Of a stretch of 64,000 nucleotides of DNA, positions 1 to 56,505 are shown in pieces. Position 1 is the stretch's first letter; each line of letters starts with the position of its first letter. Both the position numbers and the translations under genes were made by a program. The notes below the pieces were generated by a model, which searched no databases, was not told the DNA's origin, and worked only from the letters and a program-made list of their open reading frames with translations. The stretch comes from an uncultured Alphaproteobacteria bacterium (GTDB lineage Bacteria; Pseudomonadota; Alphaproteobacteria; HIMB59; GCA-002718135), in the NCBI GenBank assembly GCA_902524385.1, contig CABZCZ010000002.1, forward strand, positions 38,596 through 102,595, given 5' to 3'.

Positions 1-2
1 TT

Positions 3-104
3 GGTTATATGATTGATTGGGGTTACGGAATATCAGTTATATTTCTAATCAGCTCCATTATGATTGTTGTATCATCAATTTTACCTATAATTTATAAAAC
101 ATGA
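3..104 (+). CDS. 3' end of a CDS entering from upstream (partial, hydrophobic C-terminus)
   Basis: Frame 3 is open from the window edge to TGA at 102-104. The tail GYMIDWGYGISVIFLISSIMIVVSSILPIIYKT looks like a TM segment. The stop overlaps the next ATG (ATGA). Confidence 0.4.
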   Translation, partial: GYMIDWGYGISVIFLISSIMIVVSSILPIIYKT

Positions 105-241
105 ATAAACAAATAATGGAGAGTCTTAATTTTTTAATAAAGGAATATAAACGATTAAAAAAGAAAAAAGAAAATAAAAGCATCAGCAGTGGTGAACTAC
201 AAACTTTAAAACAACTTGAACGGTACTTAGGTAAAAAATAA
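101..241 (+). CDS. small 46-aa basic protein, translationally coupled on both sides
   Basis: ATG at 101 overlaps the upstream TGA (ATGA). TAA at 239-241 overlaps the zapE-like ATG (TAATG). Product is MNKQIMESLNFLIKEYKRLKKKKENKSISSGELQTLKQLERYLGKK. It is below the ORF-track size cut-off and no family was recognised. Confidence 0.4.
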   Translation: MNKQIMESLNFLIKEYKRLKKKKENKSISSGELQTLKQLERYLGKK

Positions 242-1275: not shown

Positions 1276-2261
1276 TGAAATACGTAGTAAGATTTTTAAT
1301 AAGTACAGTAGTTTTATTAATAGTAGTTTATTTTACTGCAGGTTTTTATGTTGCCCATCAAATTTTAAAAATAGATCCAACTTGTGGTTTGCACGAAGGA
1401 TCTCTTCCTAATTCATGGAGTACATTAGTTGATTTACATGAATACACAATTCTTGCACGACAAAAAGTAAGAGAAAATTTTAACTTTAAGGACTATTATT
1501 TAAATGAATGGCAAGATGTATATTTTCAATCTCGTGACTCTGACATCAAGATTAATGGATGGTTGTTTAATTATTTTCCAAATAGACCAATTATAATTGT
1601 TACTCATGGTATAAGTCCTAACGGTAAATGTAAGTCTGAACCCAATCTCATTGCAAGTTTTCTAGTTAACAAAAAGTTTAATGTTCTTACTATAGATTTA
1701 AGAAACTACGGCCAAAGTGATACTGTGAGTAGTTACGATGATTTAGGATTAAAGTCCTATAATGATATTCTCGGTGCATTTGACTTTTTAAAAGAGATTG
1801 GTTTTAAGTCTGATAGTATAGGTTTACATGGTATCTCTCTTGGAGCAAGCACATCTATTTTTGCAGCAAATGCAGAACCAGAAATACTTGCAGTATGGGC
1901 TGATAGTTCATTTGCTGAATTTAATATGGCGTTAAAAGATGAAATAGCAAGATACGGTCTTGAGATAGAATTTGGACCAGCAGTTAGTTTAGCAAGCAGA
2001 ATTTTAACTGGAATAGATCCAAGGGAATTATCTCCATCCAAAAAATTATCAGATAAACAATTCTATTTCTTTATTCACGGAGATTCTGATACAAGAATTT
2101 TAACAAGACATTTTTATTATTTTAAAGAATACACAAAAAAAAATAAAATTAATGCAGATTTTTGGTTAGTAGAAAATGCATATCATGTAGATGCTATGTT
2201 TAAATATCCGGAAATATATTCTAAAAAGATGGAAAATTTTTTTAATAAAAATTTAAAGTAG
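1275..2261 (+). CDS. membrane-anchored alpha/beta hydrolase
   Basis: N-terminal TM helix, nucleophile elbow GISLGAS (GxSxG), and late HGDSD and H residues consistent with a Ser-Asp-His triad. TAATG overlap with zapE. Confidence 0.75.
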   Translation: MKYVVRFLISTVVLLIVVYFTAGFYVAHQILKIDPTCGLHEGSLPNSWSTLVDLHEYTILARQKVRENFNFKDYYLNEWQDVYFQSRDSDIKINGWLFNYFPNRPIIIVTHGISPNGKCKSEPNLIASFLVNKKFNVLTIDLRNYGQSDTVSSYDDLGLKSYNDILGAFDFLKEIGFKSDSIGLHGISLGASTSIFAANAEPEILAVWADSSFAEFNMALKDEIARYGLEIEFGPAVSLASRILTGIDPRELSPSKKLSDKQFYFFIHGDSDTRILTRHFYYFKEYTKKNKINADFWLVENAYHVDAMFKYPEIYSKKMENFFNKNLK

Positions 2262-2397
2262 GCCGGACTCTAAAACTAGTTTGTACCTTGGCAGACACCT
2301 CTCTAGAATAAGAAACTCAACTAATTATCAAACGGCGGGTAAGATAACTAAAATTCTTGGCGTTCCTCCGAAGCTAAGAAACGAGTATTATCCGGCT
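2261..2397 (+). ncRNA. candidate structured RNA element of unknown class
   Basis: GCCGGA (2262-2267) pairs with UCCGGC (2391-2396), extended by CUC/GAG (2268-70 / 2383-85). Inside are two related units, CTTGGC-N(11-16)-TAAGAAAC, at 2287-2316 and 2356-2382. The second folds as a 6-bp hairpin (CUUGGC/GCUAAG) with loop GUUCCUCCGAA. This is the most G+C-rich non-coding patch in a 330-nt intergenic gap. Strand is uncertain. Confidence 0.3.
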
Positions 2398-2592
2398 AAT
2401 CAAAATTAATATTTATCTTTAAAAAATTCAAGATATTTAGTAAAATTAACCGTTAAATTTTAAGGAATTTAATAAAATTTGACACTTTTTATCAACATTT
2501 TAGTGAACATACGTGGTAGTAGGTAGAAAGCTCTCAAATTTTGAAATTTACTACAGAAAATATAAATATAATAAATATAAATATTAATAAAA

Positions 2593-2964
2593 ATGATTGA
2601 TAACAGGCCATTATCCCCACACTTGTCTATCCACAAAAAGGTTCTTACTGCAGTTTTTTCGATAACTCACAGAATGACTGGGATTGGACTTAGCATTGGA
2701 TCTATACTTATTTCTGTCTGGTTCTTACTAATTAGTTTAGGACCAGAATATTTTTTTTATTTTGAAATGATATCTCAAAATATAATTTTTAAACTTGTTC
2801 TTCTAATTTGGACAATAGGTATTTTTTATCATTTATTTAATGGTTGTAGAAAATTGTATTGGTCATTTGGAATAGGAATGGATCTTAAAACTGTTTACAC
2901 CTCAGGTTATATTGTAATTGTTTTAACTGTACTATCTACTTTAGTAGTTTGGTTGATATTATGA
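2593..2964 (+). CDS. sdhC: succinate dehydrogenase cytochrome b556 subunit
   Basis: N-terminal RPLSPHLSIHK signature, three TM helices, first gene of the sdhCDAB order. Confidence 0.9.
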   Translation: MIDNRPLSPHLSIHKKVLTAVFSITHRMTGIGLSIGSILISVWFLLISLGPEYFFYFEMISQNIIFKLVLLIWTIGIFYHLFNGCRKLYWSFGIGMDLKTVYTSGYIVIVLTVLSTLVVWLIL

Positions 2965-3290
2965 AAAACTATGCGTTAAAATGGGTTTTGCAAAGGATCA
3001 CAGCTACAATAATGATACCTTTAACTTTTTGGTTTATTTATTCTGCAATTTCACTATCCAAAATGAGTTATGATGAAATTAATATATTCTTCAACTCATA
3101 TGTTAATTCTCTACTTTTCTATGTAATGATGATTTCCATGCTTCTTCATTCCAAATTAGGCCTACAAACAATAATAGATGATTATGTCACATCGAAAAAA
3201 ATTTCAAAAAATATTAAAGGCGCCCTAAATATAAACGCTTATATGTTGATGATCTTAATAACTGTATTTATAGTAAGAAATATACTCTAA
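2961..3290 (+). CDS. sdhD: succinate dehydrogenase hydrophobic membrane anchor
   Basis: WVLQRITA motif and three TM segments. ATG at 2961 forms an ATGA overlap with the sdhC stop. The ORF track starts at an upstream TTG (2949). Confidence 0.85.
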
Positions 3291-5086
3291 TGTCCAGAAA
3301 TTCTTATAATATAATTGATCACCACTACGATGTTATAGTAGTAGGTGCAGGAGGTTCAGGTTTAAGAGCTACACTGGGATGCGCTGAATCTGGGTTGAAA
3401 ACAGCATGTATCTCAAAAGTATTTCCAACAAGAAGTCACACTGTAGCAGCTCAAGGCGGTATTGGAGCAGCATTAGGAAATATGGGAGAAGATAATTGGA
3501 AGTGGCATATGTATGATACTGTAAAAGGCTCCGATTGGTTAGGAGATCAAGATGCTATAGAGTATCTCTGCTCAAAAGCCCCCGAAGCAGTTATAGAGTT
3601 AGAAGAATATGGAATGCCATTTAGTAGAACCGATGATGGCAAAATTTATCAAAGACCTTTTGGAGGACATTTAACAGATAATGGTGAAGGCGCTCCTGCA
3701 ATGAGAGCATGTGCAGCAGCAGATAGAACAGGTCACGCTCTTTTACACACGTTGTATCAACAATCACTAAAGAACAACGTTGAATTTTTTATCGAATACT
3801 TTGTTTTAGATTTGATTACAGATGATAATGGTAATTGTATTGGGGCAGTAGCATGGTGTCTGGAAGATGGTTCGATACACCGTTTTTTATCCCACCAAAC
3901 CATTCTAGCCACTGGAGGATATGGAAGAGCATATTTTTCTTCAACTAGTGCCCATATTTGTACAGGTGATGGAAGTGCTATGGCATTGAGACAAGATCTG
4001 CCACTTTCAGATATGGAATTTATTCAGTTCCATCCAACAGGAGTTTATGGAGCCGGAGTTTTAATTACCGAAGGTGCAAGAGGTGAGGGGGGTTACTTAA
4101 CTAACAGTGATGGAGATAGATTTATGGAAAGATATGCTCCTAATGCAAAAGATCTTGCTTCCAGAGATGTTGTTAGTAGAGCTATGACAATAGAAATTAA
4201 TGAAAAGAGAGGTTGTGGTGAAAATGCAGATCACGTTCTACTCCATCTTGAGCATATAGATGCAGACACTATACACAAAAGACTACCTGGTATTTCTGAG
4301 ACTGCAAAAATTTTTGCAGGTGTAGATTTAACAAAAAAACCAATACCAGTTCTACCAACAGTACATTATAATATGGGTGGTATTCCCACAAATTATAGAA
4401 CAGAAGTTCTCAGACCAACGAATGACAATCCTGACAATGTATGTGAAGGTCTTATGGCAGTCGGAGAAGCAGCATGTGTTTCTGTTCATGGCGCTAATAG
4501 ACTAGGAACAAATTCACTAATTGATCTTGTTGTTTTTGGAAAAGCATCAAGTGAAACATGTAAAGAAAAAGTAAAACCTAATTCAAAAAAAATTGAAATT
4601 AGTAAATCTATAACCGAAGGAATTATTGATAGATTTGATAAGATTAGGCATAGCAAAGGAGATTCAACAACTGGGGAATTAAGAACTTCAATGCAACATA
4701 TTATGCAAAAAAAATGTGCTGTATTTAGAACTCATGAATTAATTTCTGATGGTATAAATGAATTCCAAAAAGTTGAAAACTCAATGGACTCAATAGATAT
4801 AAAAGACAGATCACTAATATTTAATACAGATCTTGTAGAGTCTTTAGAATTACATAACTTAATGGCTCAATCAAAAGTTACACTTCATTCTGCTTTAAAC
4901 AGAACTGAGAGTAGAGGAGCACATGCCCGTGAGGATTATCAAGAAAGAGATGATAATAATTGGCTTGTTCACTCATTAGCTTGGCTTAAAGATAATGGGG
5001 ATGTTAATATGGGAAAAAGAGCAGTGCATACAAATACATTAACAAATCATGTACAACCTATTCCGCCAAAAAAACGTGTATATTGA
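3290..5086 (+). CDS. sdhA: succinate dehydrogenase flavoprotein subunit
   Basis: FAD fold [20 protein letters not shown] (covalent FAD His), HPTG and RLGTNSL motifs. Confidence 0.97.
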
Positions 5087-5880
5087 TGGTACAATTTACT
5101 TTACCCTCTAATTCTAAAATTACAGAGGGAATAAATCATAAAATTAAAGAGCCTAATGAGTCACCAAGAAAATTAGTAATTTATAGATGGGATCCAGAAG
5201 ATAATAAAAATCCTAGGCTTGACACTTATGAAATTGATCAATCAAAATGTGGTCCAATGGTCTTAGACGCATTAATGAAAATTAAAAATGAAATTGATCC
5301 ATCATTAACATTTAGAAGATCTTGTCGTGAGGGAGTTTGCGGCTCGTGTGCAATGAATATTGATGGTATAAATACACTTGCATGTTTGAAAAGTATGTCG
5401 GATGTAAAAAAAGATATACGTATATATCCATTACCGCATATGAAAGTTGTCAAAGATTTAGTCCCTGATTTGAGTAAAGCATATGAGCAGTTGGCTTCAA
5501 TTAAACCATGGCTTGAAAGAAAAAATACAACCAATGGTGTTGCTAAGAGTAATGGTGAAGAAAAAAAACAATCACCAAAAGATAGAGAGAAACTAGATGG
5601 TAAATGGGAGTGTGTATTATGCTTTTGCTGCACTACTTCATGCCCAAGTTATTGGTGGAATGGAGATGAATATTTAGGACCTGCAGTTCTTTTACAAGCA
5701 GCAAGATGGGTAAGTGACTCTAGAGACTCAGAGAGAAAAGAGAGATTAAAAGCAATAAATGATTCATTGAAACTTTATAGATGTCATTCAATAATGAATT
5801 GTACTAGGTCTTGTCCTAAAGGTCTAAATCCAGCTAAAGAAATTGCTGGACTTAAAAAGGCTATTGTTACAGAATTGTAA
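5083..5880 (+). CDS. sdhB: succinate dehydrogenase iron-sulfur subunit
   Basis: Cys clusters [23 protein letters not shown] and [21 protein letters not shown] overlap with sdhA. Confidence 0.97.
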
Positions 5881-5898
5881 TTAAAGTATAAAACTTAA

Positions 5899-6861
<963 letters not shown>

Positions 6862-6902
6862 TTGTATTTTGCATCTAATCTAACTATTACCCTTTTATCA
6901 AA

Positions 6903-8087
6903 ATGAATTTGCATGAATATCAAGCTAAAGATCTACTAAGAAAGTACAACCTACCTATACTTGAGGGTAAAAGTTACATAGAAAATGTTGACGATTTAGA
7001 AAAAGATTTACAAAATATAAAAGGACCACCCTGGGTTATCAAATCACAGATACATGCTGGAGGAAGAGGAGCAGGTAAATTTTTAAAACCATTTAATACA
7101 AAAGGTGGAGTACAAATTACAGAATCAATTGATGATGCACAAAAAATTGCAAAAGGAATGATGGGCAACATATTGTTTACAAAACAAACAGGTAATGAAG
7201 GAAAGTTAGTAAACAGGATCTACTTAGAAGCTGGATGTGAAATTGATAGAGAATATTATTTAAGTATTCTTCTTGATAGGAATCAATCACAATTAATGAT
7301 GATGGTATCTGATGCTGGTGGTGTAGACATAGAAGATGTAGCTGAGAAAACACCAGAAAGAATTCAATATGTTTATTTTGATAACTTAGAAGATTTTACA
7401 ATTAGTGACAGTCTTCAAAATAAATTAAATTTTTCTATTAATGAGTTTAACCAATTTAAAGAAATTGTTTCAAATTTATGTAAGGCCTATGTCGAAATAG
7501 ATGCTTCGTTAATTGAAATTAATCCTCTTGTTGTGACAAAAGATGAAAAACTAATTCTTTTAGATGCTAAAATTAATATTGATGATAATGCTCTGTATAG
7601 ACAGGCTGACATTGAAAAATTAAAAGATACTTCAGAAGAAAATGATTTGGAACTTGAAGCTTCTGAAAACGATATGGTTTACATTAAGCTGGATGGAAAA
7701 ATAGGTTGTATGGTTAATGGAGCTGGACTAGCTATGGCAACCATGGATATTATTAAACAATTTGGAATGGAACCAGCCAATTTTTTAGATTTAGGTGGCA
7801 CAGCAAATAAAGAAAGAGCCATTAAAGCTTTCAAGATTATCCAATCAGATAAAAACGTGAAATCAGTATTTATAAATATTTTTGGAGGAATTATCCATTG
7901 TGACATGATTGCCAATGGTATCATTGATGCAATTAAAGAATTAGAATTTAAACTTCCTGTTGTTGTACGTTTTCAAGGAACAAATTCTAAAGAAGGAAGA
8001 AATATTATAAATAGTTCATCGTTAGGATTAATTTCAATTGATGATTTTTCAAATGCAGCTCAGAAAGCTGTGCAGTTATCAGAATAG
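6903..8087 (+). CDS. sucC: succinyl-CoA synthetase beta subunit
   Basis: [12 protein letters not shown] start, ATP-grasp domain, [15 protein letters not shown] motif. Confidence 0.97.
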
Positions 8088-8971
8088 TGTCAATTTTAGT
8101 AAATAAAAGTACAAGACTGATTTGCCAAGGCTTTACTGGTTCACAAGGAACATATCATTCTGAACAAGCTATAGCATATGGTACAAACCTTGTTGGTGGT
8201 GTCACACCAGGTAAAGGAGGGCAAACCCATTTAAATTTACCAGTGTTCAATACCGTTGCCGATGCAGTCAAACAAACTGAAGCCAACGCAACAGTTATTT
8301 ACGTTCCTGCTAAGTTTGCTGCAAAAGCAATTCACGAAGCCTTAGATGCAAATATTGAATTAATTGTCTGTATTACAGAGGGTATTCCGGTCTTAGATAT
8401 GATTGATATAAAAAAACGAATTATTAAAAATAAAACATATTTGATTGGACCTAACTGTCCAGGATTAATCACACCTTCTGAATGTAAGATTGGAATCATG
8501 CCTGGCTTCATCCATAAAAAAGGTAAAATAGGAATAGTGAGTAGATCAGGAACATTAACCTACGAAGCTGTGGCACAGACAACAGAGGTAGGATTAGGTC
8601 AATCAACATGTGTCGGTATTGGTGGAGATCCAATACATGGGATGGATTTTGTAGATTGTATAAAGTTATTTTTAGAAGATGATGAGACCGAGGGAATTTT
8701 AATGATTGGCGAAATTGGTGGCGAGGAAGAAGAAAATGCGGCAGTATTTATTTCAAATTCAAAAATAAAAAAACCAGTTTCAGCATTTATAGCTGGACAA
8801 TCTGCCCCAAAAGGAAAGCGTATGGGTCATGCAGGTGCTATCGTTTCGGGCTTAAAAGGTACAGCACAATCTAAAATTAAATCTTTAGAAAATGCTGGAG
8901 TTTTGGTATCAAAATCACCAGCATCATTGGGAAATACAATGAAATTAGCAATGCAAAATGGTAATAATTAG
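8087..8971 (+). CDS. sucD: succinyl-CoA synthetase alpha subunit
   Basis: SRSGTLTYE and the phosphohistidine motif GHAGAIV. GTG start overlaps the sucC stop by 1 nt. Confidence 0.97.
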
Positions 8972-9022
8972 TTTCCATTTGTATGATTGTTATGCGAAAT
9001 AGTTTTAGTTTAATAGAAATCT

Positions 9023-11926
9023 ATGAATAATACTTTCTTAAATAGTGCTAATGCGCCATATGTGGCCGAACTGTATTCTAAATTTCGAAATGATCCTGAA
9101 AGTGTGGACACTACTTGGAAAGATTTTTTTAATAATTTAAATGAAGATGAGTACTCAGTTCTTAAAGATTTTGGAGGACCAGAATGGAAAGAACGTCCAT
9201 CAAATATAATAGATAAAAATTACATAACTAAAGTTATAAAATCAAATGTGAATTACAATTCTGAAGAATTTAGAATTTCAACCTTAGATTCAATTAGAGT
9301 ATTAAGATTAATTAGAGCTTTTAGAATTAATGGACATTTAATTGCAGATCTCGACCCTTTAGGAATATCTGAAAGAGAGTATCCCCAAGAATTAGATTAT
9401 AGAAGTTATGGTTTTAATGAATCAGATTTAGAAAAAGAAATATTTATTGATGGAAGTTTGGGTTTAGAGAAAGGTAAATTAAAAACTATTATAAAAATCC
9501 TAAAAGAAACATATTCTGCTTCTATTGGTGTTGAATTTTTACATATACAACAAGCCAATCAAAAACAATGGGTGCAGGAAAGAATTGAAGAAGTTAGAAA
9601 TAAAACAAATTTTACAAATGAAGGAAAAAAAGCAATCTATAAAAGATTAGTTGAATCAGAACTGTTCGAACAGTTTTTAGATAAAAAGTTTTTAGGCACA
9701 AAGAGATATGGTATCGAAGGTGGTGAAGCTATGATACCAGGGATAGAGCAAATTGTTAAACAGGCATGTTTGTCTGGAATAGAAGATATAATTATTGGAA
9801 CGGCTCATAGAGGAAGACTAACACTTTTATCAAGTATTTTAGAGATGCCTTACAAAAAAATTTTAGCAAAATTTCAAGGCACTTTAAATGACCCAAATGA
9901 AGTACTTGGTTCGGGGGATGTTAAATATCATTTAGGTGTTTCTACTGATCGTGAATTCGAAAAAAAGAAAATTCATTTATCACTCACTCCTAATCCATCA
10001 CATTTAGAAGCAGTTAACCCTGTCGTGGCAGGAAAAGTAAGAGCTAAACAAACTTTAGCCAAAGATAAAACAACAGATAAAGTTATTGGTTTATTAATCC
10101 ATGGAGATGCAGCAATAGCTGGACAAGGAGTAGTAGCTGAAACATTTGCTATGTCACAATTAAGAGGTTTTAAAACAGGTGGTACAATTCACTTTGTAAT
10201 AAACAATCAGATAGGTTTTACAACGATGCCTCAATATGGACGATCAGCACCTTACTGTACTGAAATTGCAAAAATGGTTCAGGCTCCAATATTTCATGTT
10301 AATGGCGATGATCCAGAAGCTGTAGTTCATGTTTGTAGACTTGCAACAGAGTTTAGAAATAAATTCAAAGTCGATGTTGTTATTGATATGTTTTGTTACA
10401 GAAGATCAGGTCATAACGAAGCTGATGAACCTTCTTTTACTCAGCCACTTATGTATAAGGCTATCAAAAAACAAATCACAACAAGAAAAAAATATGAAAA
10501 TAAATTGATTGAAAATAGAACTTTTTCAGAGGGAGAAACTAAAGAAATTGTAGATTCTTTTAAAAACTTTTTAGATAAAGAATTTGAATCAACAAAAAAT
10601 TATAAGCCAAATAAAGTAGATTGGTTAGAGGGAACTTGGACAGGTTTATCTACTGCAACATTTGATGCTAGAAAGGGCAAAACTTCTGTAACAGAAAAAA
10701 CATTAGTTAGTGTAGCTAAAAAAATCCATAATATACCTGCAGATTTCAATGTCCATAGACGAATTAAAAAAATTTATGGAGATAGATTAACAAGTGTAAC
10801 TAAAGGAAAGGGTATCGATTGGGCAACCTCTGAAAGCTTAGCTTTGGCAACACTTTTAGACGAGGGATACGGTGTTCGTATATCTGGTCAAGATGTTGGA
10901 AGAGGCACATTTAGCCATAGACACGGTGTTCTATATGATCAAGTAAACGAAAATCGCTTTGTTCCATTAAGACACTTTCAAAGTAAACAAGGTTACTTTG
11001 AAATTGTAGATAGTTTTTTATCTGAATTTGGTGTTCTAGGTTTTGAATATGGATACTCACAAGTTGATCCTAAAACACTTGTTATTTGGGAAGCGCAGTT
11101 TGGTGATTTTGCAAATGGTGCTCAAATTATGATTGATCAATTTATCAGTTCTGGAGAAAGAAAATGGTTGAGAATGTCTGGTTTAACGATGCTTCTTCCC
11201 CACGGTCATGAGGGACAAGGCCCTGAGCATACAAGTGGAAGATTAGAGAGATTTTTACAAATGTGTGCAGAAGATAATATGCAAATTGTTAATTGCACTA
11301 GTCCCGCAAATTATTTTCATGTTTTAAGAAGGCAACTACATAGAAACTTTAGGAAACCCTTAATTATATTTACACCAAAATCCACACTTAGACATAAATC
11401 TAATGTTTCAAATATTGAGGATTATATTAATGGGTCAACCTTTCATAGAATTCTTACTGATAAATTATTAGTTAAAGACAAAAAGAAAAATAAAAGATTA
11501 ATAATTTGTTCTGGTAAAATATATTTTGAATTAGCAGATTATATTGCAAATAATAAAGTTAAAAATCTTTCAATAGTTAGATTGGAGCAGATTTATCCAT
11601 TTCCTTATGAAAACTTCAGAGATGAATTAAAATATTATACGGATGCTGAAATTATCTGGGTACAAGAGGAACCAAAAAATATGGGTGCTTGGGGATTTGT
11701 GAAAGGTAGATTGGAAAGTGTTATGCAGGAAGTTAATGTTAAACAAGAGAAAATATACTACGTTGGTAGAAGTCCGGCTGCTTCTCCAGCCGCTGGTTCT
11801 TTAGAAAGACACTTAAGTAACCAAGAAACTATTATAAAAATGGCAACTGAAGATTCAATTAGCAAAATTATCAAATCTTGGGCAGGTATTTCAACAAAAT
11901 TAAAGACTAATCTGCCAATTGAATAA
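9023..11926 (+). CDS. sucA: 2-oxoglutarate dehydrogenase E1 component
   Basis: 967 aa with HRGRLTLL, GDVKYHLG, and the ThDP-binding and transketolase-like regions typical of SucA. Confidence 0.97.
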   Translation: MNNTFLNSANAPYVAELYSKFRNDPESVDTTWKDFFNNLNEDEYSVLKDFGGPEWKERPSNIIDKNYITKVIKSNVNYNSEEFRISTLDSIRVLRLIRAFRINGHLIADLDPLGISEREYPQELDYRSYGFNESDLEKEIFIDGSLGLEKGKLKTIIKILKETYSASIGVEFLHIQQANQKQWVQERIEEVRNKTNFTNEGKKAIYKRLVESELFEQFLDKKFLGTKRYGIEGGEAMIPGIEQIVKQACLSGIEDIIIGTAHRGRLTLLSSILEMPYKKILAKFQGTLNDPNEVLGSGDVKYHLGVSTDREFEKKKIHLSLTPNPSHLEAVNPVVAGKVRAKQTLAKDKTTDKVIGLLIHGDAAIAGQGVVAETFAMSQLRGFKTGGTIHFVINNQIGFTTMPQYGRSAPYCTEIAKMVQAPIFHVNGDDPEAVVHVCRLATEFRNKFKVDVVIDMFCYRRSGHNEADEPSFTQPLMYKAIKKQITTRKKYENKLIENRTFSEGETKEIVDSFKNFLDKEFESTKNYKPNKVDWLEGTWTGLSTATFDARKGKTSVTEKTLVSVAKKIHNIPADFNVHRRIKKIYGDRLTSVTKGKGIDWATSESLALATLLDEGYGVRISGQDVGRGTFSHRHGVLYDQVNENRFVPLRHFQSKQGYFEIVDSFLSEFGVLGFEYGYSQVDPKTLVIWEAQFGDFANGAQIMIDQFISSGERKWLRMSGLTMLLPHGHEGQGPEHTSGRLERFLQMCAEDNMQIVNCTSPANYFHVLRRQLHRNFRKPLIIFTPKSTLRHKSNVSNIEDYINGSTFHRILTDKLLVKDKKKNKRLIICSGKIYFELADYIANNKVKNLSIVRLEQIYPFPYENFRDELKYYTDAEIIWVQEEPKNMGAWGFVKGRLESVMQEVNVKQEKIYYVGRSPAASPAAGSLERHLSNQETIIKMATEDSISKIIKSWAGISTKLKTNLPIE

Positions 11927-11957
11927 ATTGACGTAAATGTTATTAAGCATTTAATTA

Positions 11958-13139
11958 ATGAGCACTGAATTAATAGTTCCAACACTTGGCGAGTCAATTA
12001 CGGAAGCAACTGTTTCAAAATGGCTTAAGAATATAGGCGATAATTTTGAAGCAGATGAACCTTTAGTTGAAATTGAAACTGATAAAATTACAGTTGAAGT
12101 ACCGGCGCCTCATGCAGGATCTCTAAAAGAAATAAAAGTCTCTGAAGGAATTGATGTTGAAATTGGTGGTATTTTAGGAATATTAGATGAATCAAAAGGT
12201 AAAAAACCAACCTCTAAAAAAACTGAAACCAAAGAAGATAAAGTAAAAGAAGAAATAAAAGAAGTTATGGTTGAAACAAAATCTTCACCTGCAAAATCTT
12301 CACCATCTGCAAGAAAAATTGCTGAGGAAAATAATATTAACATAGAAGATGTCACTTCTTCACGTTCTGATGGAAGAATTAATAAAGAAGACGTAGTCTC
12401 TCATCTCTCTTCTCTAAATAATAAAACCATCAACAAAGGTGAAAGAGAAGAAGTTGTTAAAATGTCTAAAATTAGACAGACAATATCTAAACGTTTAAAG
12501 GAAGCTCAAAATACAGCAGCCATACTTACAACTTTCAATGAAATTGATATGTTCAAAGTTATGGAAATTAGAAAATCAAAAAACCAAGAATTTCAAAGCA
12601 GGTATGATGTGAAATTAGGTTTCATGTCATTTTTTGTAAAAGCTGTAGTAAAAAGTTTGCAAGAATATCCAGCTGTAAATGCAGAAATTAAAGATGAAAA
12701 TATAATTTATAAAAACCATTTTGATGTAGGTATAGCTGTTGGAACTGAAAAAGGATTAGTCGTACCAATACTTAAAGACGCCGATAAATTGAGTTTTGGA
12801 GAAATAGAAACTAAAATTATCGATCTCAGTACAAAAGCCAAAGATGGAACTTTGACAATCGACGATTTGACTGGAGGAACTTTTACAATTTCAAATGGTG
12901 GCGTTTATGGATCAATGCTCAGTACTCCAATAATCAATAGACCTCAATCTGGTATTTTAGGGATGCATAATATTCAAAAAAGAGCAGTAGTTGTAAATGA
13001 TGAAATAGTAATTAGGCCAATGATGTATGTTGCATTAAGTTATGATCACAGAATTATTGATGGAAAAGAAAGTGTTGGATTTTTGGTGAAGGTGAAAGAA
13101 CTTTTAGAAGATCCATCTGAATTAGTATTAGGAATATAA
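11958..13139 (+). CDS. sucB: dihydrolipoyllysine succinyltransferase E2
   Basis: Lipoyl motif [15 protein letters not shown], a flexible K/E/S-rich linker, and catalytic DHRIIDG. Confidence 0.95.
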
Positions 13140-27428: not shown

Positions 27429-28724
27429 CTATTCTTGAATTTCATCAAAGAGACTTACACCTAACACAAGATCAAAAGCTCTGCGAAGCTGATAATCAAC
27501 TTCTAATCGTTTTTCAAATTCACTTAACTCATTAGCTTCATTTTCTTCTACATCTTCTTCATTATTTTTATCAAGGGAATCTTTTAAATCTGATTCAGAA
27601 AATCTCTTGTAATTAAAAGATTCAAATTCTCCTTGTTCAATGATTATATCTGGTACAATACCCTTACCTTGGATTGACTCACCTGAGGGAGTATAATATC
27701 TAGCGGTGGTTAGTCTTATACCAGTTAAATTATCACTATTTGAAACTTGAAAGGGAATTATTGTTTGTACTGATCCTTTACCAAAAGATTGAGTGCCTAT
27801 AATGATTGCTCTTTTATGATCCTGAAGTGCGCCTGCAACAATTTCAGAAGCAGACGCAGAACCACTATCAATAATTACCACCAGTGGTTTTCCATTAATT
27901 CTGTCAGACTTTTTTGCACGATATCTTCTAATATCTTTTTTATCTCTACCTCTTGTTGAAACAATTTCTCCTCTTTCCAAAAATATATCCGTTACCTTAA
28001 CTGCTTGAGTAAGAAGACCCCCTGGGTTAGACCGTATATCTAAAACGTAACCTTTTATTTTATTTTCTTTTTCAATTTTCTTTATAGCATCTAGAAGACC
28101 ACTTTCTGTTTGTTCATTAAAAGATGTTATTCTTAAATATCCAATATTGTTAAGCACTTCACTTTTAACTGATCTAATTTTGATATAATCTCTAACAATT
28201 TCAATCTCAAAAGGTTCAGTATTTACTCTAGAAATAGTGATTACTATCGGCTCACCTTTTTCCCCCCTCATTAATTCGACAGCTTCATTTAGCGTTAGTC
28301 CAAAAACAGGTGTTTCATTTATTTGAATAATGTAATCACCAGCAAGAACTCCAGCATCATATGCCGGTGTATCTTCTATCGGTGCTATAACTTTTACAAA
28401 ACCTTCTTCCATGGTAATTTCAATACCTAATCCACCAAATTTTCCCGCTGTATCCATCTGCATTTCTTGAAATACTTCTTCGTTCATAAAACCTGAATGA
28501 GGATCTAAGCCTGACAACATTCCATCAATTGCTTTTTCAATTAATTCTTGATCTGTAACTTCTTCCACGTAGGTAGATCTTACCCTATCAAATACTTGTC
28601 CAAATAAATCTAAATATTTATATTTTTCTTCATCTGTAGAAGATCCATAGGTTTTAGGTGCCAGAAGTGTAATGAGGATGAACAGTAATATAACTTTTGA
28701 AAATATATTTTTTGAAACTCTCAT
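27429..28724 (-). CDS. ctpA: carboxy-terminal processing protease (S41)
   Basis: Signal/TM N-terminus, PDZ region (GGLGIE), DIRSNPGGLL, SGSASASEI. Confidence 0.92.
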   Translation of the reverse strand: MRVSKNIFSKVILLFILITLLAPKTYGSSTDEEKYKYLDLFGQVFDRVRSTYVEEVTDQELIEKAIDGMLSGLDPHSGFMNEEVFQEMQMDTAGKFGGLGIEITMEEGFVKVIAPIEDTPAYDAGVLAGDYIIQINETPVFGLTLNEAVELMRGEKGEPIVITISRVNTEPFEIEIVRDYIKIRSVKSEVLNNIGYLRITSFNEQTESGLLDAIKKIEKENKIKGYVLDIRSNPGGLLTQAVKVTDIFLERGEIVSTRGRDKKDIRRYRAKKSDRINGKPLVVIIDSGSASASEIVAGALQDHKRAIIIGTQSFGKGSVQTIIPFQVSNSDNLTGIRLTTARYYTPSGESIQGKGIVPDIIIEQGEFESFNYKRFSESDLKDSLDKNNEEDVEENEANELSEFEKRLEVDYQLRRAFDLVLGVSLFDEIQE

Positions 28725-51923: not shown

Positions 51924-52510
51924 ATAAATCTAATTATAAAAACACTTCCAATAAGTAAAATAAAAAATAAAATAGTTAAAATATTAAAATATTTATCGAT
52001 AATTAATTTAATTTTTTCGCTAAAAAAGTATAAAAGTATTGCTATCAAATAAAACCTTGATCCTCGACCAATAATAGAAATAATTATAAATAAAAAAATA
52101 TTTAGTCCAAATACACCACTTGCAATTGTAATAAACTTATATGGAAAGGGTGTTAAACCAGCACCTAAAACAATTAAAATACCAAATTCTTTGTAGTAAT
52201 TTTCAAAAACGCTAAAAGAATTTTCTAAATGATAAAACTCAACAATGTAAATACCTAATGAATTATAAAAAAAATATCCTATTGCATATCCTAATATTCC
52301 ACCAAGAACCGAAAAGATGGTGCAAATAAATGCATAAAATAAAGCCCTTGCTTTAGAAGCTAAAGCCATTGGTATTAGAATTATGTCAGGTGGGATTGGA
52401 AAAAATGAACTTTCTGCAAACGAAATTAGACTTAAATACCATTTTGCATTTTTATGCTCAGCTTTTTTTAATGTCCAATTATAGATATTTCTAAGAAAAT
52501 TCATTACCAT
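51920..52510 (-). CDS. DedA/SNARE-associated family membrane protein
   Basis: Polytopic membrane protein with F.ESSFFPIPPD and GRG.RFY motifs. Start trimmed to ATG 52510, because the longer ORF would run through the tRNA gene. Confidence 0.8.
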   Translation of the reverse strand: MVMNFLRNIYNWTLKKAEHKNAKWYLSLISFAESSFFPIPPDIILIPMALASKARALFYAFICTIFSVLGGILGYAIGYFFYNSLGIYIVEFYHLENSFSVFENYYKEFGILIVLGAGLTPFPYKFITIASGVFGLNIFLFIIISIIGRGSRFYLIAILLYFFSEKIKLIIDKYFNILTILFFILLIGSVFIIRFI

Positions 52511-52516
52511 TAATCT

Positions 52517-52601
52517 TGGTAGGAGTAGAGGGAATCGAACCCACACCACCGAAGTGACCGGATTTTGAATCCGGCGCGTCTACCAGTTCCGCCATACTCC
52601 C
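52517..52601 (-). tRNA. tRNA-Leu (anticodon CAA)
   Basis: The minus strand reads GGGAGTATGGCGGAACTGGTAGACGCGCCGGATTCAAAATCCGGTCACTTCGGTGGTGTGGGTTCGATTCCCTCTACTCCTACCA. It has a 7-bp acceptor stem (G1-U72 wobble), a D arm and a CCGGA/TCCGG anticodon stem with loop TTCAAAA. It also has a long variable arm with a UUCG loop, a TTCGATT T-loop and an encoded CCA. Confidence 0.93.
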
Positions 52602-52602
52602 A
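52540..52602. repeat. left copy of a perfect 63-bp direct repeat (tRNA-Leu positions 1-62 plus 1 upstream nt)
   Basis: Base-for-base identical to 55525-55587 by manual comparison. Confidence 0.95.
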
Positions 52603-52774
52603 AATTATTTTTCTAAGTATTACTTGGTTTTCAAAGTTAAGTCTATCAGCTTATTTGTATAAAATAGAAATATAGGACAACAAAAGGCCAACAAGAAAAA
52701 TTGAAATTATTTTAAGATAATTCCTATTATCAGAGCCCTTAACAATCTCATTGGTTGGTGGTAGGATAATCTTG

Positions 52775-53110
52775 ATGAAAGAAATACCTTATATAATTTT
52801 ATATATTGGTTCTCCAATAATATTAGGATCAATAGCTTTTATTTTTTTCCCTCAAATTAATGGGCATGTAATTAATTATATTTGTGAAGGAAATTTTAGA
52901 AACTGTCTTCCTGGACAAGATGACAATATAAGTTTTTTTCAAAAAATCCCTTTTTGGTTAGGTTTTGTTTGTCTATTTTGTTTTTACGTTTGTTATAAAA
53001 TTTTTAAGGAAAATAAAATTGTAGGTTTATTTATATATTGTACTTTAGGACTTGGTAGTTTTCTATTATTTGTATTTTATGCTTATAATGTCTTATCAAA
53101 TTATGTGTAA
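52775..53110 (+). CDS. hypothetical membrane protein
   Basis: ORF with 3 predicted TM segments. ATG 52775 is preferred over the TTG at 52751. No family recognised. Confidence 0.6.
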   Translation: MKEIPYIILYIGSPIILGSIAFIFFPQINGHVINYICEGNFRNCLPGQDDNISFFQKIPFWLGFVCLFCFYVCYKIFKENKIVGLFIYCTLGLGSFLLFVFYAYNVLSNYV

Positions 53111-53112
53111 TT

Positions 53113-53538
53113 ATGAACTTAGAAAAAATATTTAAAAATACAATATTACTTTATTTTTTATCAACTGTTGTCTTTCTGGTTATCAGTTTTACGTTAGAAA
53201 AAAACTTTCTAGGAGAAGAATTATACCTTATTGATTCAGAAATAGATCTTTTTATTATACCCGCTTTAGAAGAATCAATATTTATACTTATATGGTTTTT
53301 GGTAGCTTTAATTGCTTTTACTATAAATATTCTATCTCTTTATTTTTTATATTATTTCAAACCTATAGGAAAAAAACTATATATTTATAGCTTAATCGTA
53401 CTCTTCATATTATTTATTTTTGATAAGGGTGACGTTATAAGTGGCCCTCTTCAATTAATGGATTATTTTGGATCACTACTTGAAGGTATAATTATATGCT
53501 TTCTATACTTCACTCCAATTAAAGAAAAGTTTAATTAA
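53113..53538 (+). CDS. hypothetical membrane protein
   Basis: 141 aa and about 4 TM segments. It starts 2 nt after the upstream stop. No family recognised. Confidence 0.6.
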   Translation: MNLEKIFKNTILLYFLSTVVFLVISFTLEKNFLGEELYLIDSEIDLFIIPALEESIFILIWFLVALIAFTINILSLYFLYYFKPIGKKLYIYSLIVLFILFIFDKGDVISGPLQLMDYFGSLLEGIIICFLYFTPIKEKFN

Positions 53539-53691
53539 ATGGGTTTTTCAAAAGTCCCCGTACATATTTTTGAAATATTAAAAGGAGAAAAGGATGTATC
53601 TCTAATTGATTATCTTATAGCAGTTGTAATAGTCTTTATATTTTGTTGGGTAATATATGGAATACTTACTTTGTTTGATAAAAAAAAATAA
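53539..53691 (+). CDS. possible 50-aa single-pass membrane peptide
   Basis: The ATG directly abuts the upstream TAA (TAAATG). Product is MGFSKVPVHIFEILKGEKDVSLIDYLIAVVIVFIFCWVIYGILTLFDKKK. It is below the ORF-track cut-off. Confidence 0.35.
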   Translation: MGFSKVPVHIFEILKGEKDVSLIDYLIAVVIVFIFCWVIYGILTLFDKKK

Positions 53692-53706
53692 ATTTGTAAA
53701 TATTTT

Positions 53707-54978
53707 ATGAAAAGAGCTAAGAAAAATCAAAAGGACAAAGAAAAAATTTTAATAGTAGATTCTATTGTTGAAAATGGATCATATTTAGAAGAATCATTAA
53801 ATTTTAATAAATTTATTAAAAGAGAAAAATCTTCCCTTGGTTATAAAACAATAAAATCTGAAGATAAAATTAATGGATATGATAGGGCTTTTTTTGAAAC
53901 ATTAAAAAATGATAAGGCTAAATGTTTTTTTGCCAACAATTATAGATTTTTAGAAATAGGTGAATTTATCGATGGGAAGTTAGATGGCATAGGTGGAATT
54001 TATTTGTACGATTATGTTAATAAAGATGAGTACGAATTTGTTTTTTTATTTGGACGTTTTAAAAGCGGTTTACCCCATAAAACTCTTTATTTTTATTCAA
54101 GTTATGGAGATGAAAAAGATAGTCATATTAGAATGGACTGGGAAATGGGTGAACTTATTTCAATTAATAAAGATTCTAGGAATGCAAAGGAAGAATTGTG
54201 GAATAAAAGTTTTATGAAATCTAATTTATTTTATTATCCTGATAATAAAATATTATTAAATAAAAAAAATTTTAAGAACAAAGAATGGTGGGGAGAGTAT
54301 AAAAACTTATATTTAACAAATGTTAGACCTAAACATAATTATACTAAAGAAGATAAAATAAATCAGATAAATGAATTTATAAAAAACGGAAAAAATTTAG
54401 AGGAACAATTTATAGAAGCTCCTGTAAAAATTAATCCAACCTCTATTTTCGGACACAAAAATTTTTTTTTAGATAAAGTATTTGGGAAATTTATTGGTTA
54501 TGACAGAGGTTTCTATAAAACACTTAAAAATGACAAAGCTAAAGAACAATTTGCAAATTACTATAGAAAACTAGAGATCGGAGAATTTAAAAATCACAAA
54601 TTACATGGACTGGGTGGGAGATATTTATATGATTATCAAAATAGTCCAAGCTTAGTAATCTTATGGGGAAATTTTTTAAATGGTTATTTAGATGGTAGAG
54701 TTCAATATATAACTGAAAATGATAAAGAAGGTATAATTGTATATCTTTCATTTTGGTCAAAAGGTGAATTAATCAAGCTTGAAAAGAGAGACAAGGAACA
54801 CGCTATTGAAATAAGTAAAGACTATTATGTTAACCCCTGGGCATGTCTAAACATATATAAAGGTGTCGGAATAATTGAAGAAGATTACTATGAAGAGCTT
54901 TTAAAAGAAGATGAAATGGGTTTTTTAGATGCAGTGGATTGGTGGGACGAATACAAGGAAAATTATCAAAAATGGTAG
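53707..54978 (+). CDS. two-module repeat protein with MORN-like motifs
   Basis: Internal duplication: aa 55-152 (INGYDRAFFETLKNDKAK..LEIGEF.DGKLDGIGG.YLYDY) matches aa 262-358 (FIGYDRGFYKTLKNDKAK..LEIGEFKNHKLHGLGGRYLYDY). Each module ends in a WW(G/D)EYKxxY motif. Confidence 0.75.
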   Translation: MKRAKKNQKDKEKILIVDSIVENGSYLEESLNFNKFIKREKSSLGYKTIKSEDKINGYDRAFFETLKNDKAKCFFANNYRFLEIGEFIDGKLDGIGGIYLYDYVNKDEYEFVFLFGRFKSGLPHKTLYFYSSYGDEKDSHIRMDWEMGELISINKDSRNAKEELWNKSFMKSNLFYYPDNKILLNKKNFKNKEWWGEYKNLYLTNVRPKHNYTKEDKINQINEFIKNGKNLEEQFIEAPVKINPTSIFGHKNFFLDKVFGKFIGYDRGFYKTLKNDKAKEQFANYYRKLEIGEFKNHKLHGLGGRYLYDYQNSPSLVILWGNFLNGYLDGRVQYITENDKEGIIVYLSFWSKGELIKLEKRDKEHAIEISKDYYVNPWACLNIYKGVGIIEEDYYEELLKEDEMGFLDAVDWWDEYKENYQKW

Positions 54979-55023
54979 ATTAAATTATTTTTATATTTAA
55001 CATAAAAACTACAAAAAATTATT

Positions 55024-55404
55024 ATGAATTTATCTAAATTACTAAAAGAAAAAAAGGAAAATTACTATTCAGCAATACTTTCTTTAGTAGATAAACAGAT
55101 TTATCAAATCATGATGGATTTGGAAAATAAAAGAACAGAAAAATATAAAAGTCATGACTCTAATATTTTGAGTCATGAAATAATTGGTATTGGAGAAGTT
55201 TTAAAATTGCCTCACATTGAACATTTTGAAAAAATAATAGAAACTAGAGAGTCATATTTAGAACTACTAAAAATGTGTAATGAAAAAAATTTTAAATTAG
55301 AAATAAAAGAAACAAATGTAGGTTATGAAAATCCTGATAATTATCATATCTTAGAACCTACATTAGAAACTTTTAAAATTATTATGACTCCTTTTGAGGC
55401 ATAA
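55024..55404 (+). CDS. hypothetical protein
   Basis: 126-aa soluble, charged ORF. No family recognised. Confidence 0.55.
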   Translation: MNLSKLLKEKKENYYSAILSLVDKQIYQIMMDLENKRTEKYKSHDSNILSHEIIGIGEVLKLPHIEHFEKIIETRESYLELLKMCNEKNFKLEIKETNVGYENPDNYHILEPTLETFKIIMTPFEA

Positions 55405-55445
55405 TCATTAGCTAAATTTACAGTTACTTCATTACAAAAATAACA

Positions 55446-55467
55446 GGTCAACAAATGGTCAACAAAT
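55446..55467. repeat. perfect tandem 11-bp repeat GGTCAACAAAT x2
   Basis: Read directly. Related tandem pairs occur at 52675-52696 and 55661-55681. Confidence 0.9.
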
Positions 55468-55524
55468 TTTATATGAAAATTATTTTAGGAATATTTTTTG
55501 GCTGTACAGTTAGCATTAATAATG

Positions 55525-55587
55525 CCCACACCACCGAAGTGACCGGATTTTGAATCCGGCGCGTCTACCAGTTCCGCCATACTCCCA
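55525..55587 (-). pseudogene. 5' fragment of tRNA-Leu(CAA), positions 1-62, lacking the T-loop and 3' acceptor strand
   Basis: Identical to the 5' part of the intact tRNA at 52517-52601. The sequence diverges exactly after the 5' strand of the T stem. Confidence 0.9.
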
Positions 55588-55746
55588 TATTAATAATTTA
55601 AGTACTATAAGGTTTTAATAAATAAGTCTATTAGGTTATTTACGTATAATATTAATGTATGGCAACAAAAGGGAAACAAATTTTATTATAATTTAAAAAA
55701 ATTTTTAATTTATAGAAATCAGTAATTTTAAACTTTATTATTTATT

Positions 55747-56505
55747 ATGAAAAAAAATATTCTTTTCTTACATATTCCTAAAACAGCAGGTCAAACTATC
55801 AGATCTGCGTTTAATGACATGTTAAAAAAAAATACTGATATAGATCTTCATACTGGAGCAAGTGAAGGTTTGGTGGATCAATTTTCACTTAATTATTTTA
55901 ATAAAAAAAATCTAAATAAAGATATAAATATTTTTACAGGACATTTTGTTTTTAGTGAAGCTTGCAAAAATTTTGACCTATTTTCAATTGTTAGAAATCC
56001 TATAAACTTATTTATTTCTAGCTTATATTTTTTTTATCTTGAAAAATATAAAAGAGTTAATTTGAATTCAAAATCTATAAAAATGATTAAAAAAAAACTA
56101 AACTTTGACTTAGAATTATCTAATAATGATTTAAAAATTATGCCTAAATTAATAGAAAATAATTTTGTAAATTCAAATATAATAACTAAAACTATTGCTG
56201 GTATCCCTTATGAAAAATATTATCTTGTACATGAAGATTATAAACTAGAAGAAGAAGATTATCTTAAAGCTAAGGAAAATCTAAAATACTTTAAACACAT
56301 TGGTAATGTTGAAAATGTAGAAAATTTCTTAAAAATATTAATAAGTTATGTTCCACTTAATTCTATAAATTATAGATCTATGAATATCTTTAAGAAAGAT
56401 AAGATTTTAATTCAAAACATCAAAAACTCAATAGGAGACATGATTAAAGATTATAATTATTATGATACTAAGCTTCTTGAGATTATAAAAACTAAGTTTA
56501 ACTAA
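55747..56505 (+). CDS. sulfotransferase-family protein
   Basis: The N-terminal LFLHIPKTAGQTIRSAF matches the HIPKTGG-type 5'-phosphosulfate-binding motif of the carbohydrate sulfotransferase family. 252 aa. Confidence 0.65.
   Translation: MKKNILFLHIPKTAGQTIRSAFNDMLKKNTDIDLHTGASEGLVDQFSLNYFNKKNLNKDINIFTGHFVFSEACKNFDLFSIVRNPINLFISSLYFFYLEKYKRVNLNSKSIKMIKKKLNFDLELSNNDLKIMPKLIENNFVNSNIITKTIAGIPYEKYYLVHEDYKLEEEDYLKAKENLKYFKHIGNVENVENFLKILISYVPLNSINYRSMNIFKKDKILIQNIKNSIGDMIKDYNYYDTKLLEIIKTKFN

Follow-up and report, generated by a model that had tools for sequence, protein, structure and literature searches.

The tRNA-Leu(CAA) locus

The DNA analysed here is a 64-kb stretch of contig CABZCZ010000002.1 from an uncultured alphaproteobacterium, referred to below as the window. 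The single tRNA gene called in it by ARAGORN and Rfam is an intact, functional tRNA-Leu(CAA) at 52517–52601 on the minus strand (RF00005, 56.8 bits), and a truncated copy of this gene is located at 55525–55587, also on the minus strand. The segment 52602–55587, which comprises five genes and the truncated copy, is likely what remains, without an integrase, of a small integrative mobile element whose target is tRNA-Leu(CAA) in SAR11-type bacteria. The intact tRNA forms the right end of the relic, its attR side, and the truncated copy, which is nonfunctional as a tRNA, is the remnant of the attL side. The dedA gene starts 8 nt downstream of the intact tRNA on the same strand. The DNA to the left of the tRNA is core genome (dedA, dsbB and a COQ7-like gene), and that to the right has a low G+C content (16–30%) and contains genes for a sulfotransferase, a GT2 glycosyltransferase and an epimerase.

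The truncated copy was delimited by sequence comparison and consists of tRNA positions 1–62 and one upstream base. It is identical to 52540–52602 at 63 of 63 positions, with a spacing of 2,985 bp, and the match ends on both sides. The repeat is not due to chance, because all repeated 25-mers of the window come from this pair, which makes it the sole repeat of at least 25 nt in 64 kb. The truncated copy stops at position 62, where the T stem completes its 5′ strand, and is not called by ARAGORN. In tRNA orientation, the far copy comprises about 95 nt of upstream sequence followed by tRNA positions 1–62. The sequences upstream of the two copies (52603–52700 and 55588–55685) share 67 of 98 positions in an ungapped alignment, and the value over the 155-nt repeat family is 83%. 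An earlier note, written from the letters of this DNA, had described the tRNA gene, the perfect 63-bp repeat with its period of 2,985 bp, a second copy that ends at the T stem and cannot fold into a tRNA, and a flank beyond the tRNA 5′ end that is homologous yet diverged; our results agree with all of these descriptions. An nhmmer profile of 53 such units, used for the detection of further, older relics in the island, matched just the two known copies.

Junction sequence and loss of the integrase gene

On its cassette side, the truncated copy is joined to a spacer (55467–55524, minus strand) that leads to a pair of short direct repeats with an 11-nt period, TTTGTTGACC/ATTTGTTGACC (55446–55466, minus strand), which we call the P-prime doublet. 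The spacer and the doublet form an 85-nt block (55440–55524). The part of the spacer that stands in place of tRNA positions 63–85 (55500–55524), called the pseudo-3′ part, agrees with these positions in 9 of 23 nucleotides, which is no more than expected by chance, and we do not claim that it descended from the tRNA. The 85-nt block recurs after truncated tRNA copies in the genome loci L023, L034, L050, L063, L075 and L077 and on the metagenome contigs L086, L087 and L088, nine other loci in total. Junctions of the window type and those with a full-length tRNA copy agree in the distance that separates tRNA position 62 from the end of the P-prime doublet, which is 79 nt.

In L077 and L086, the block is followed directly by a hairpin (CACTTCTAGAAAGTG) and then by the start codon of a 332-residue tyrosine integrase encoded on the strand of the tRNA (PF00589, 1.4e-22; phrog_1, 1.4e-53), so that the P-prime doublet is positioned just upstream of the hairpin and the integrase start. 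An integrase gene is located at the homologous junction of L010 as well. The scan of metagenomes for the junction provided three contigs only, among which L086 is decisive: it is 99.3% identical to the window over 55447–55590 and its integrase is intact.

The integrase gene is preserved to various extents at these junctions. It is intact in L077 and L086, about 100 codons are kept in L002/L017 and ten codons in L023, the hairpin alone remains in L063 and L087, and nothing is left past the doublet repeat in the window, L075, L088, L034 and L050. The window departs from its integrase-bearing relatives right after the P-prime doublet, at a deletion breakpoint of approximately 55445/55446. No integrase was detected in the window by tblastn with the cognate integrase, or by comparison of the open reading frames (ORFs) of the cassette to Pfam and PHROGs. 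Since the integrase is absent from the window yet present at the same junction in relatives, the cassette is a relic and not an intact member of the family, and it is integrase-less merely through gene deletion. The lack of an integrase in the cassette, pointed out in the earlier note, thus stands for the window, but not as the mark of a separate kind of cassette.

The palindrome CACTTTCTAGAAAGTG and its variants, followed by AGAAA-ATG, precede the integrase genes in L077 (2026–2047), L086, L010, L080, L082 and L085. These integrases are merely 50–60% identical to each other and target different tRNAs. The palindrome is probably an operator or a hairpin for translational control. A 26-codon ORF with a lipoprotein-like start (MKIILGIFFGC...) at 55473–55553 on the plus strand runs into the tRNA fragment. 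It is probably not a gene, and we consider it a chance product within the conserved spacer; its start is conserved because the spacer itself is.

Architecture of the attachment site

The region upstream of the intact tRNA (52602–52695, minus strand) appears to be derived from the element and has the same layout as the regions upstream of tRNA copies in dozens of relatives. It contains the conserved promoter-like motifs TAGACT (52640–52645) and TAATACT (52616–52622), separated by 17–18 nt. Their conservation suggests that they constitute the promoter of the tRNA, although they were not flagged by the promoter scan, which returned 35 matches against 23.5 expected and is uninformative in this AT-rich DNA. 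The doublet CTTGTTGGCC/TTTTGTTGTCC (52675–52695, minus strand), designated P, belongs to the class of doublets positioned at −95 to −73 of tRNA copies. The region upstream of the truncated copy (55588–55680, minus strand) is organized in the same way, with TAGACT at 55625–55630, TAGTACT at 55601–55607 and the doublet TTTGTTTCCC/TTTTGTTGCC at 55661–55680 (minus strand). This region probably served as the right arm of a family member that arrived earlier and whose tRNA received the present element.

Under a strict definition, doublets with an 11-nt period are located 55–75 nt after 11 of 20 truncated copies, compared to 4.1% of random windows, and at −95 to −73 of 24 of 67 tRNA copies, compared to 2.9% of random windows, which corresponds to a 12-fold enrichment of the upstream doublets. 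The half-sites vary by locus and include GTTGACC, GACGCCC, GACGCTT, GACACT and GATTCCC, and the doublet type agrees at both ends in most cassettes, including that of the window. We infer that the doublets (for example TTGTTGACC) may be arm-type binding sites of the integrase. The earlier note had offered, as one of two possibilities, an element that carries its own tRNA 5′ half and promoter. This possibility is supported by the integrase upstream region that lies beside the truncated copy, and by the arm repeats of the junction's type in the promoter region of the proximal tRNA.

The extra tRNA copies of the relatives can be divided into three classes. In the pseudo-3′ class, which includes the window, identity extends from the promoter to position 44–63 and the remainder is unrelated. 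Full-length duplicates occur in L010, L049, L031 and L070. In the pseudo-5′ class (L052, L089 and L096), identity extends from position 30/31 to position 85 behind a diverged 5′ part. The segment common to all extra copies comprises only positions 31–44, which form the anticodon loop and the 3′ strand of its stem. Because no other segment is shared by all the classes, the crossover may be placed there, with strand exchange in or beside the anticodon loop. An anticodon-loop class of tRNA integration sites was reportedly distinguished by Williams in 2002. The duplication of the 5′ rather than the 3′ part is one state of a flexible site with three interchangeable polarity states. The oddity of a 5′ duplication, implied in the earlier note, was overstated: sister elements use full-length, 5′-type and 3′-type sites, and phage attachment sites (attP) with partial 5′ tRNA ends are known from pelagiphages (10.1101/410191).

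Variable cassettes in related genomes

Relatives of the locus were gathered from one genome per species, in fixed tiles of 8 kb, by exact matching to the first 62 nt of the tRNA. The 62-nt part was found in 77 tiles from about 75 SAR11-type genomes, which are mostly single-cell genomes from tropical oceans and one of which is labelled Pelagibacteraceae. Extra copies of the unit formed by the upstream region and the tRNA 5′ part are present in at least 20 genomes, and the intervening cassettes contain one to four genes. In the tiles, which were oriented by the tRNA, the extra copies always share the orientation of the intact tRNA and are always located upstream of it. They end at tRNA position 44, 47, 49–52, 58–59, 62–63 or 69, or span the whole tRNA; in two cases the copy breaks off at position 18, and these represent the window-type junction with an internal deletion.

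Close relatives, the core flanks of which are 88–92% identical, vary in the sequence directly upstream of the identical tRNA, and also in the presence of a gene for a 398-residue major facilitator superfamily (MFS) transporter between the tRNA and dedA. Across the approximately 75 genomes, the site carries differing cassettes or none. The earlier note had suggested checking whether the dedA–tRNA-Leu site is an insertion hotspot with variable cassettes, and these results speak in favour of one.

The MFS gene is found at 1803–2999 of L008 and at about 25 other loci, and is absent from the window between 52509 and 52517. In L074, it is positioned between the tRNA fragment and the intact tRNA, therefore either copy of the duplicated tRNA can be the one that is lost. 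An integron-like resident integrase was ruled out, as the 1.2-kb gene that separates dedA from the tRNA in many relatives encodes the MFS transporter. An integron was ruled out as well, since the cassettes are parted by tRNA-derived units and not by attC hairpins, and the integrase is encoded inside the mobile unit.

One cassette, between the tRNA fragment and the intact tRNA of L069 (4575–5339, in the direction of the tRNA), contains a homologue of the window sulfotransferase gene at 55747–56505 (plus strand), with a nucleotide identity of 71%. The edge of the glycosylation island of the window may thus also have been laid down by this element family.

Integrase-bearing relatives

The element in L086 is about 7.5 kb long and contains, behind the integrase gene, an ORF for an excisionase-like helix-turn-helix (HTH) protein, a CHC2 zinc-finger ORF, a gene for a 712-residue DUF5906/primase protein and several small ORFs. 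In L010, an 85%-identical integrase is followed by cargo on the reverse strand, an HTH_17-like protein and a CHC2 zinc finger. A further relative, L085, is the contig ctg142248_1x_c of 22,974 nt, of which positions 1–12620 were analysed; its element includes a related integrase, a DUF5906 protein and a 3′-type site from tRNA-Phe. Its genes repeat with a period of about 11.3 kb, as in a concatemer of two 11.3-kb units or a circle that was traversed twice, and L085 is a free form of the element. The set of an integrase, a primase/helicase and an AlpA-like protein or excisionase within 5–17 kb, which is characteristic of the marine phage satellites named VEIMEs, is found in L086, L010 and L085 and is not found in the window. 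With its integrase, xis-like HTH protein and primase/helicase, the element family resembles VEIMEs and tycheposons.

The integrase family comprises at least 207 clusters at E ≤ 1e-20 in marine metagenomes, and its members are associated with several tRNA genes. Related integrases occur in the same layout at tRNA-Gly(GCC) with a 5′ fragment that ends after the anticodon loop (L080), at a full tRNA-Gly with ribose-transporter cargo (L082), at tRNA-Ser(GCT) with a 5′ fragment and matching GGAGTA doublets on both arms (the second element of L086), and at tRNA-Phe with a 3′ part (L085). Integrases of phages are at most 39% identical to that of the element, and no Pelagibacter phage is among the matches listed.

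Positions 1–13485 of L086 contain two tandem 7.5-kb elements with near-identical 712-residue primase/helicases and with integrases that differ from each other (49% identity). The site of one is tRNA-Leu(CAA), and that of the other is of the tRNA-Ser(GCT) 5′ type. The tandem could be real or an assembly chimera formed via the shared gene.

Cargo genes and their exchange

The five cargo ORFs are located on the strand opposite to that of the tRNA. The first encodes a predicted membrane protein of 111 residues (52775–53110, plus strand), which was listed as a 119-residue ORF starting from TTG at 52751, is called with 111 residues in L089, and has a 93%-identical counterpart in L049. The second (53113–53538, plus strand) encodes a predicted membrane protein of 141 residues, and the exact protein is encoded on six other contigs, including that of the single-cell genome CACBJI010000001 and TARA metagenomes. 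The third is a small hydrophobic ORF of 50 residues (53539–53691, plus strand) that is also called in L089, L090 and L091. The fourth (53707–54978, plus strand) encodes a 423-residue protein of an orphan family with an internal duplication, the two similar halves of which include GYDRAFFETLKNDKAK... and GYDRGFYKTLKNDKAK..., respectively. Its homologues form nine clusters only, all of them marine, and one distant homologue has a match to the MORN repeat (PF02493). The fifth (55024–55404, plus strand) encodes a 126-residue protein that is found in identical form on eight other contigs. The fourth and fifth genes together constitute a separate module in L096 and L102. None of the five proteins belongs to a Pfam or PHROG family, and comparison to these databases gave nothing usable as to their function.

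A conserved 32-nt block, CTTAACAATCTCATTGGTTGGTGGTAGGATAA (52738–52769, plus strand), ends 5 nt before the first cargo ATG. It is unique in the window, and no occurrence is expected by chance. The block (CTTAACAATCTCnTTGGTTGGTGGTAGGATAA) reads TTAACA-17-TGgTAGGAT, which is a promoter-like match. It fronts different cargo genes in L010 (twice), L046, L049, L082, L089, L096 (twice) and L102 (twice), at a distance of 3–6 nt from the ATG of unrelated genes, including those of a tRNA-Gly element. The block is a recurrent right-hand boundary of exchangeable cargo, and its motifs suggest that it may be a portable promoter for leaderless mRNAs or a strong ribosome-binding leader.

The single-cell genome L089 contains cargo that is about 99.6% identical to 52725–55460 of the window, next to a core flank with 91.3% identity. 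Its far tRNA copy is complete and has an L010-type spacer, the MFS gene and dedA come after its near copy, which is of the pseudo-5′ class, and its far flank contains a flavin reductase gene, compared to the sulfotransferase island of the window. The window and L089 share the breakpoint of the integrase deletion, GTTGACC|TGTTATTTTTG. Therefore, the cargo was already integrase-less when it spread, and the difference in arms goes back either to a later exchange or to movement of the cassette in trans. Parts of the cargo occur on their own: L096 contains only the module of 423 and 126 residues, placed between two pseudo-5′ units, and L049 only that of 111 and 141 residues.

In four seawater metagenomes, the depth of unitigs is about 1,000–2,000 for parts of the tRNA, about 100–900 for dedA and about 10–50 for the cassette. 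The cassette is a minority allele, as is evident from its depth compared to that of dedA.

Elsewhere in the window, positions 27736–28037 (plus strand) match the Rfam family Rickettsia sRNA47 (RF02800) with 70.2 bits, above the gathering score. The match is opposite to a 431-residue ORF on the minus strand (27429–28724).

Origin of the cassette

We propose that the element attaches through a tRNA gene copy of its own, which includes the promoter and has two direct repeats in 11-nt phase on either side, and that the integrase gene comes directly after a small hairpin. In the variant found in the window, the tRNA copy of the element would have been disabled after position 62. A crossover with the chromosomal tRNA, within the anticodon loop or adjacent to it, would then yield two products. 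In the far product, attL (55440–55680), the old promoter and tRNA positions 1–62 would be joined to the integrase end of the element. The product on the dedA side, attR (52517–52695), would be a functional tRNA with the promoter and 5′ part from the element and the 3′ part from the chromosome. A later deletion, starting just after the P-prime doublet, would have removed the integrase and replication genes and left the five cargo genes. An element with a disabled 3′ part would rebuild a working tRNA at the far end, with its own promoter, and one with a disabled 5′ part would rebuild it at the integrase end.

Several results weigh against this origin. No integrase, excisionase or replication gene, and no recognizable fragment of one, is left in the window, therefore the place of the cassette in the family depends on the arm repeats and an 85-nt junction. 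In L085, the one free relative, the arm repeats at the two ends differ, which weakens the reading of the doublets as arm sites. The set of relatives is biased by the exact match and the 8-kb tiles, and the frequencies derived from it are lower bounds. An intact element with this cargo is absent from the contexts of the cargo proteins and their homologues, and no free circular element with tRNA-Leu was recovered. No viral contig or phage record was found to contain the tRNA-Leu(CAA) segment: exact searches of IMG/VR with the 62-nt and 36-nt tRNA segments gave no match, and blastn of the tRNA unit against phage genomes matched generic phage tRNA-Leu genes only. A 22-nt search of IMG/VR returned two contigs, and the one that was inspected (L078) is unrelated and has a G+C content of 62%. 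Furthermore, the cargo is common to the window and L089, whereas the arms are not. Site-specific integration is thus insufficient by itself to explain the arrangement seen today, and homologous recombination must also have acted.

A more far-reaching possibility, which we consider rather unlikely, is that the integrase-less cassette is no dead relic but a cis-mobilisable module still moved in trans by the integrases of incoming sister elements, and that the family serves as a cassette platform of SAR11. The whole tRNA gene with its promoter would be the attachment site of such a platform, the disabled half would set the side on which the tRNA is rebuilt, and the promoter-like block at 52738–52769 would express any cargo placed behind it. 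If true, this would explain how cargo with about 99.6% identity came to reside in two species-level lineages with 91% core identity, between different arms and in opposite polarity.

Alternative explanations

Homologous recombination might have acted alone, with double crossovers at the conserved tRNA and core genes swapping the cassettes, the tRNA fragment as a by-product, and no site-specific recombinase at any time. The near-identity of the cargo (about 99.6%) against 91% in the core, the different arms and flanking genes, and the reshuffling of cargo modules at recurrent boundaries in L049, L096 and L102 would be expected from such exchange, for which the tRNA, identical across many species, provides an anchor. 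Nevertheless, we regard this origin as unlikely, since it leaves unexplained the integrase upstream region beside the fragment, the retention of positions 31–44 in all extra copies, and the matching phased doublets that flank the cassettes. Recombination between divergent lineages, the other possibility raised in the earlier note, is not the primary origin but did contribute, as indicated by the disparity in identity between cargo and core and by the different att arms.

It is very unlikely that the cassette is a remnant of a prophage of the HTVC019P type. These pelagiphages integrate into tRNA-Cys, tRNA-Leu(TAG/TAA) and tRNA-Arg with phage-borne 5′ tRNA parts (10.1101/410191), and Ralstonia phage integrases are among the best phage matches of the integrase. 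However, the matches listed for the integrase include no Pelagibacter phage and the identity to any phage is below 40%; neither the phage records nor the viral contigs searched contain the tRNA-Leu(CAA) segment; PHROGs gave no match to the cargo; and the intact relatives, at 7.5–11 kb, contain a primase/helicase and are devoid of structural, RNA polymerase and lysis genes.

An error of assembly, or nothing more than a local tandem duplication around the tRNA in the sequenced genome, can be dismissed as exceedingly improbable: the exact 63-bp repeat may mislead short-read assemblers, and the metagenome unitigs (k = 31, too short to span the 63-nt repeat) break there, but unitigs from four independent seawater metagenomes cover 52627–52858, 55477–55537 and 55563–55942, and thus both cassette junctions, words from 52300–55900 occur in at least 20 seawater metagenome runs of several studies, the same cargo is located between tRNA copies in two other single-cell genomes, of which L089 was assembled independently, and the upstream regions are about 68% identical, therefore no recent local duplication took place.

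Relation to known elements

The intact relatives are similar to VEIMEs (2022, PMC9618062) in their length of 7.5–11 kb, their tyrosine integrase, excisionase or AlpA-like HTH protein and primase/helicase, their integration in Pelagibacter-type genomes, and the assembly of one of them as a concatemer. In contrast, the window is devoid of the hallmark genes. The description of VEIMEs (PMC9618062) includes no such tRNA attachment sites, arm repeats or cargo cassettes, and the word 'tRNA' is absent from its text.

Tycheposons of Prochlorococcus are tyrosine-recombinase elements at island-associated tRNAs that leave partial tRNA copies behind (Hackl et al., 10.1101/2020.12.28.424599). In the model proposed for them, newer insertions displace older ones deeper into the island, where degenerate elements, integrase fragments, orphan partial tRNAs and cargo accumulate (10.1101/2020.12.28.424599). 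The window locus agrees with this model of island growth point by point, with an island-proximal tRNA, partial tRNA copies, and accumulated degenerate elements and cargo. It differs in the host and the tRNA, and in that, here, the tRNA receives its promoter and 5′ part from the element and polarity switches among sister elements.

The use of 5′-type sites was shown experimentally for HTVC019P-type pelagiphages, which have partial tRNA 5′ ends in their attP (Zhao et al., 10.1101/410191). The elements described here share with them the host group, integration into tRNA genes and an attP beside the integrase gene (10.1101/410191). The pelagiphages, however, are T7-like, have genomes of 35–45 kb and target tRNA-Cys, tRNA-Leu(TAG/TAA) and tRNA-Arg, whereas the present elements are small, lack structural genes of phages and use tRNA-Leu(CAA) as their target.

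Partial tRNA repeats were found to mark gene cassettes, in the absence of canonical mobile elements, in SAR11 gMED islands (Molina-Pardines et al. 2025, PMC11796062), and the window shows the same phenomenon as the four tRNA-linked islands of that study, which does not name a cognate integrase, att architecture or polarity. Integrase-associated mobilized regions near tRNAs were reported in Pelagibacter (PMC11876622), and a 2026 preprint proposed phage insertion at the tRNA boundaries of the main SAR11 hypervariable region, naming the Phe/His and Arg tRNAs. The position next to a tRNA, the repeated partial tRNA copies and the variable small cassettes are also features of the additive flexible genomic islands of Rodriguez-Valera and co-workers.

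The window cassette can furthermore be compared to integrative elements that lost their integrase. Cis-mobilisable elements (CIMEs) of this origin are said to have been described by Pavlovic et al. in 2004. Like them, the window cassette has both att sites and no recombinase, and was apparently derived by deletion from an integrase-bearing element. It differs from them in the divergence of P, the doublet beside the tRNA, from P-prime.

Significance

No bacterial group is more abundant in the ocean than SAR11. It was long believed to have almost no mobile elements, and yet its genomic islands turn over quickly. Both 5′-type tRNA sites and integrase-less cassettes with tRNA repeats were already known in SAR11, and the locus is a fairly ordinary case of them and no new kind of system. 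New in relation to the literature consulted are the assignment of such cassettes to one particular family of integrases, the attachment-site architecture with its three polarity states, and the evidence for the recent exchange of integrase-less cargo. The junction block, the hairpin and the promoter-like block provide markers for further relics in metagenomes, and the arm doublets and the anticodon-loop core are testable sites for biochemistry. The locus offers a sequence-level account of how an island may grow, in which an element would insert at tRNA-Leu(CAA), supply its own promoter and front half of the tRNA, decay, and leave its cargo behind.

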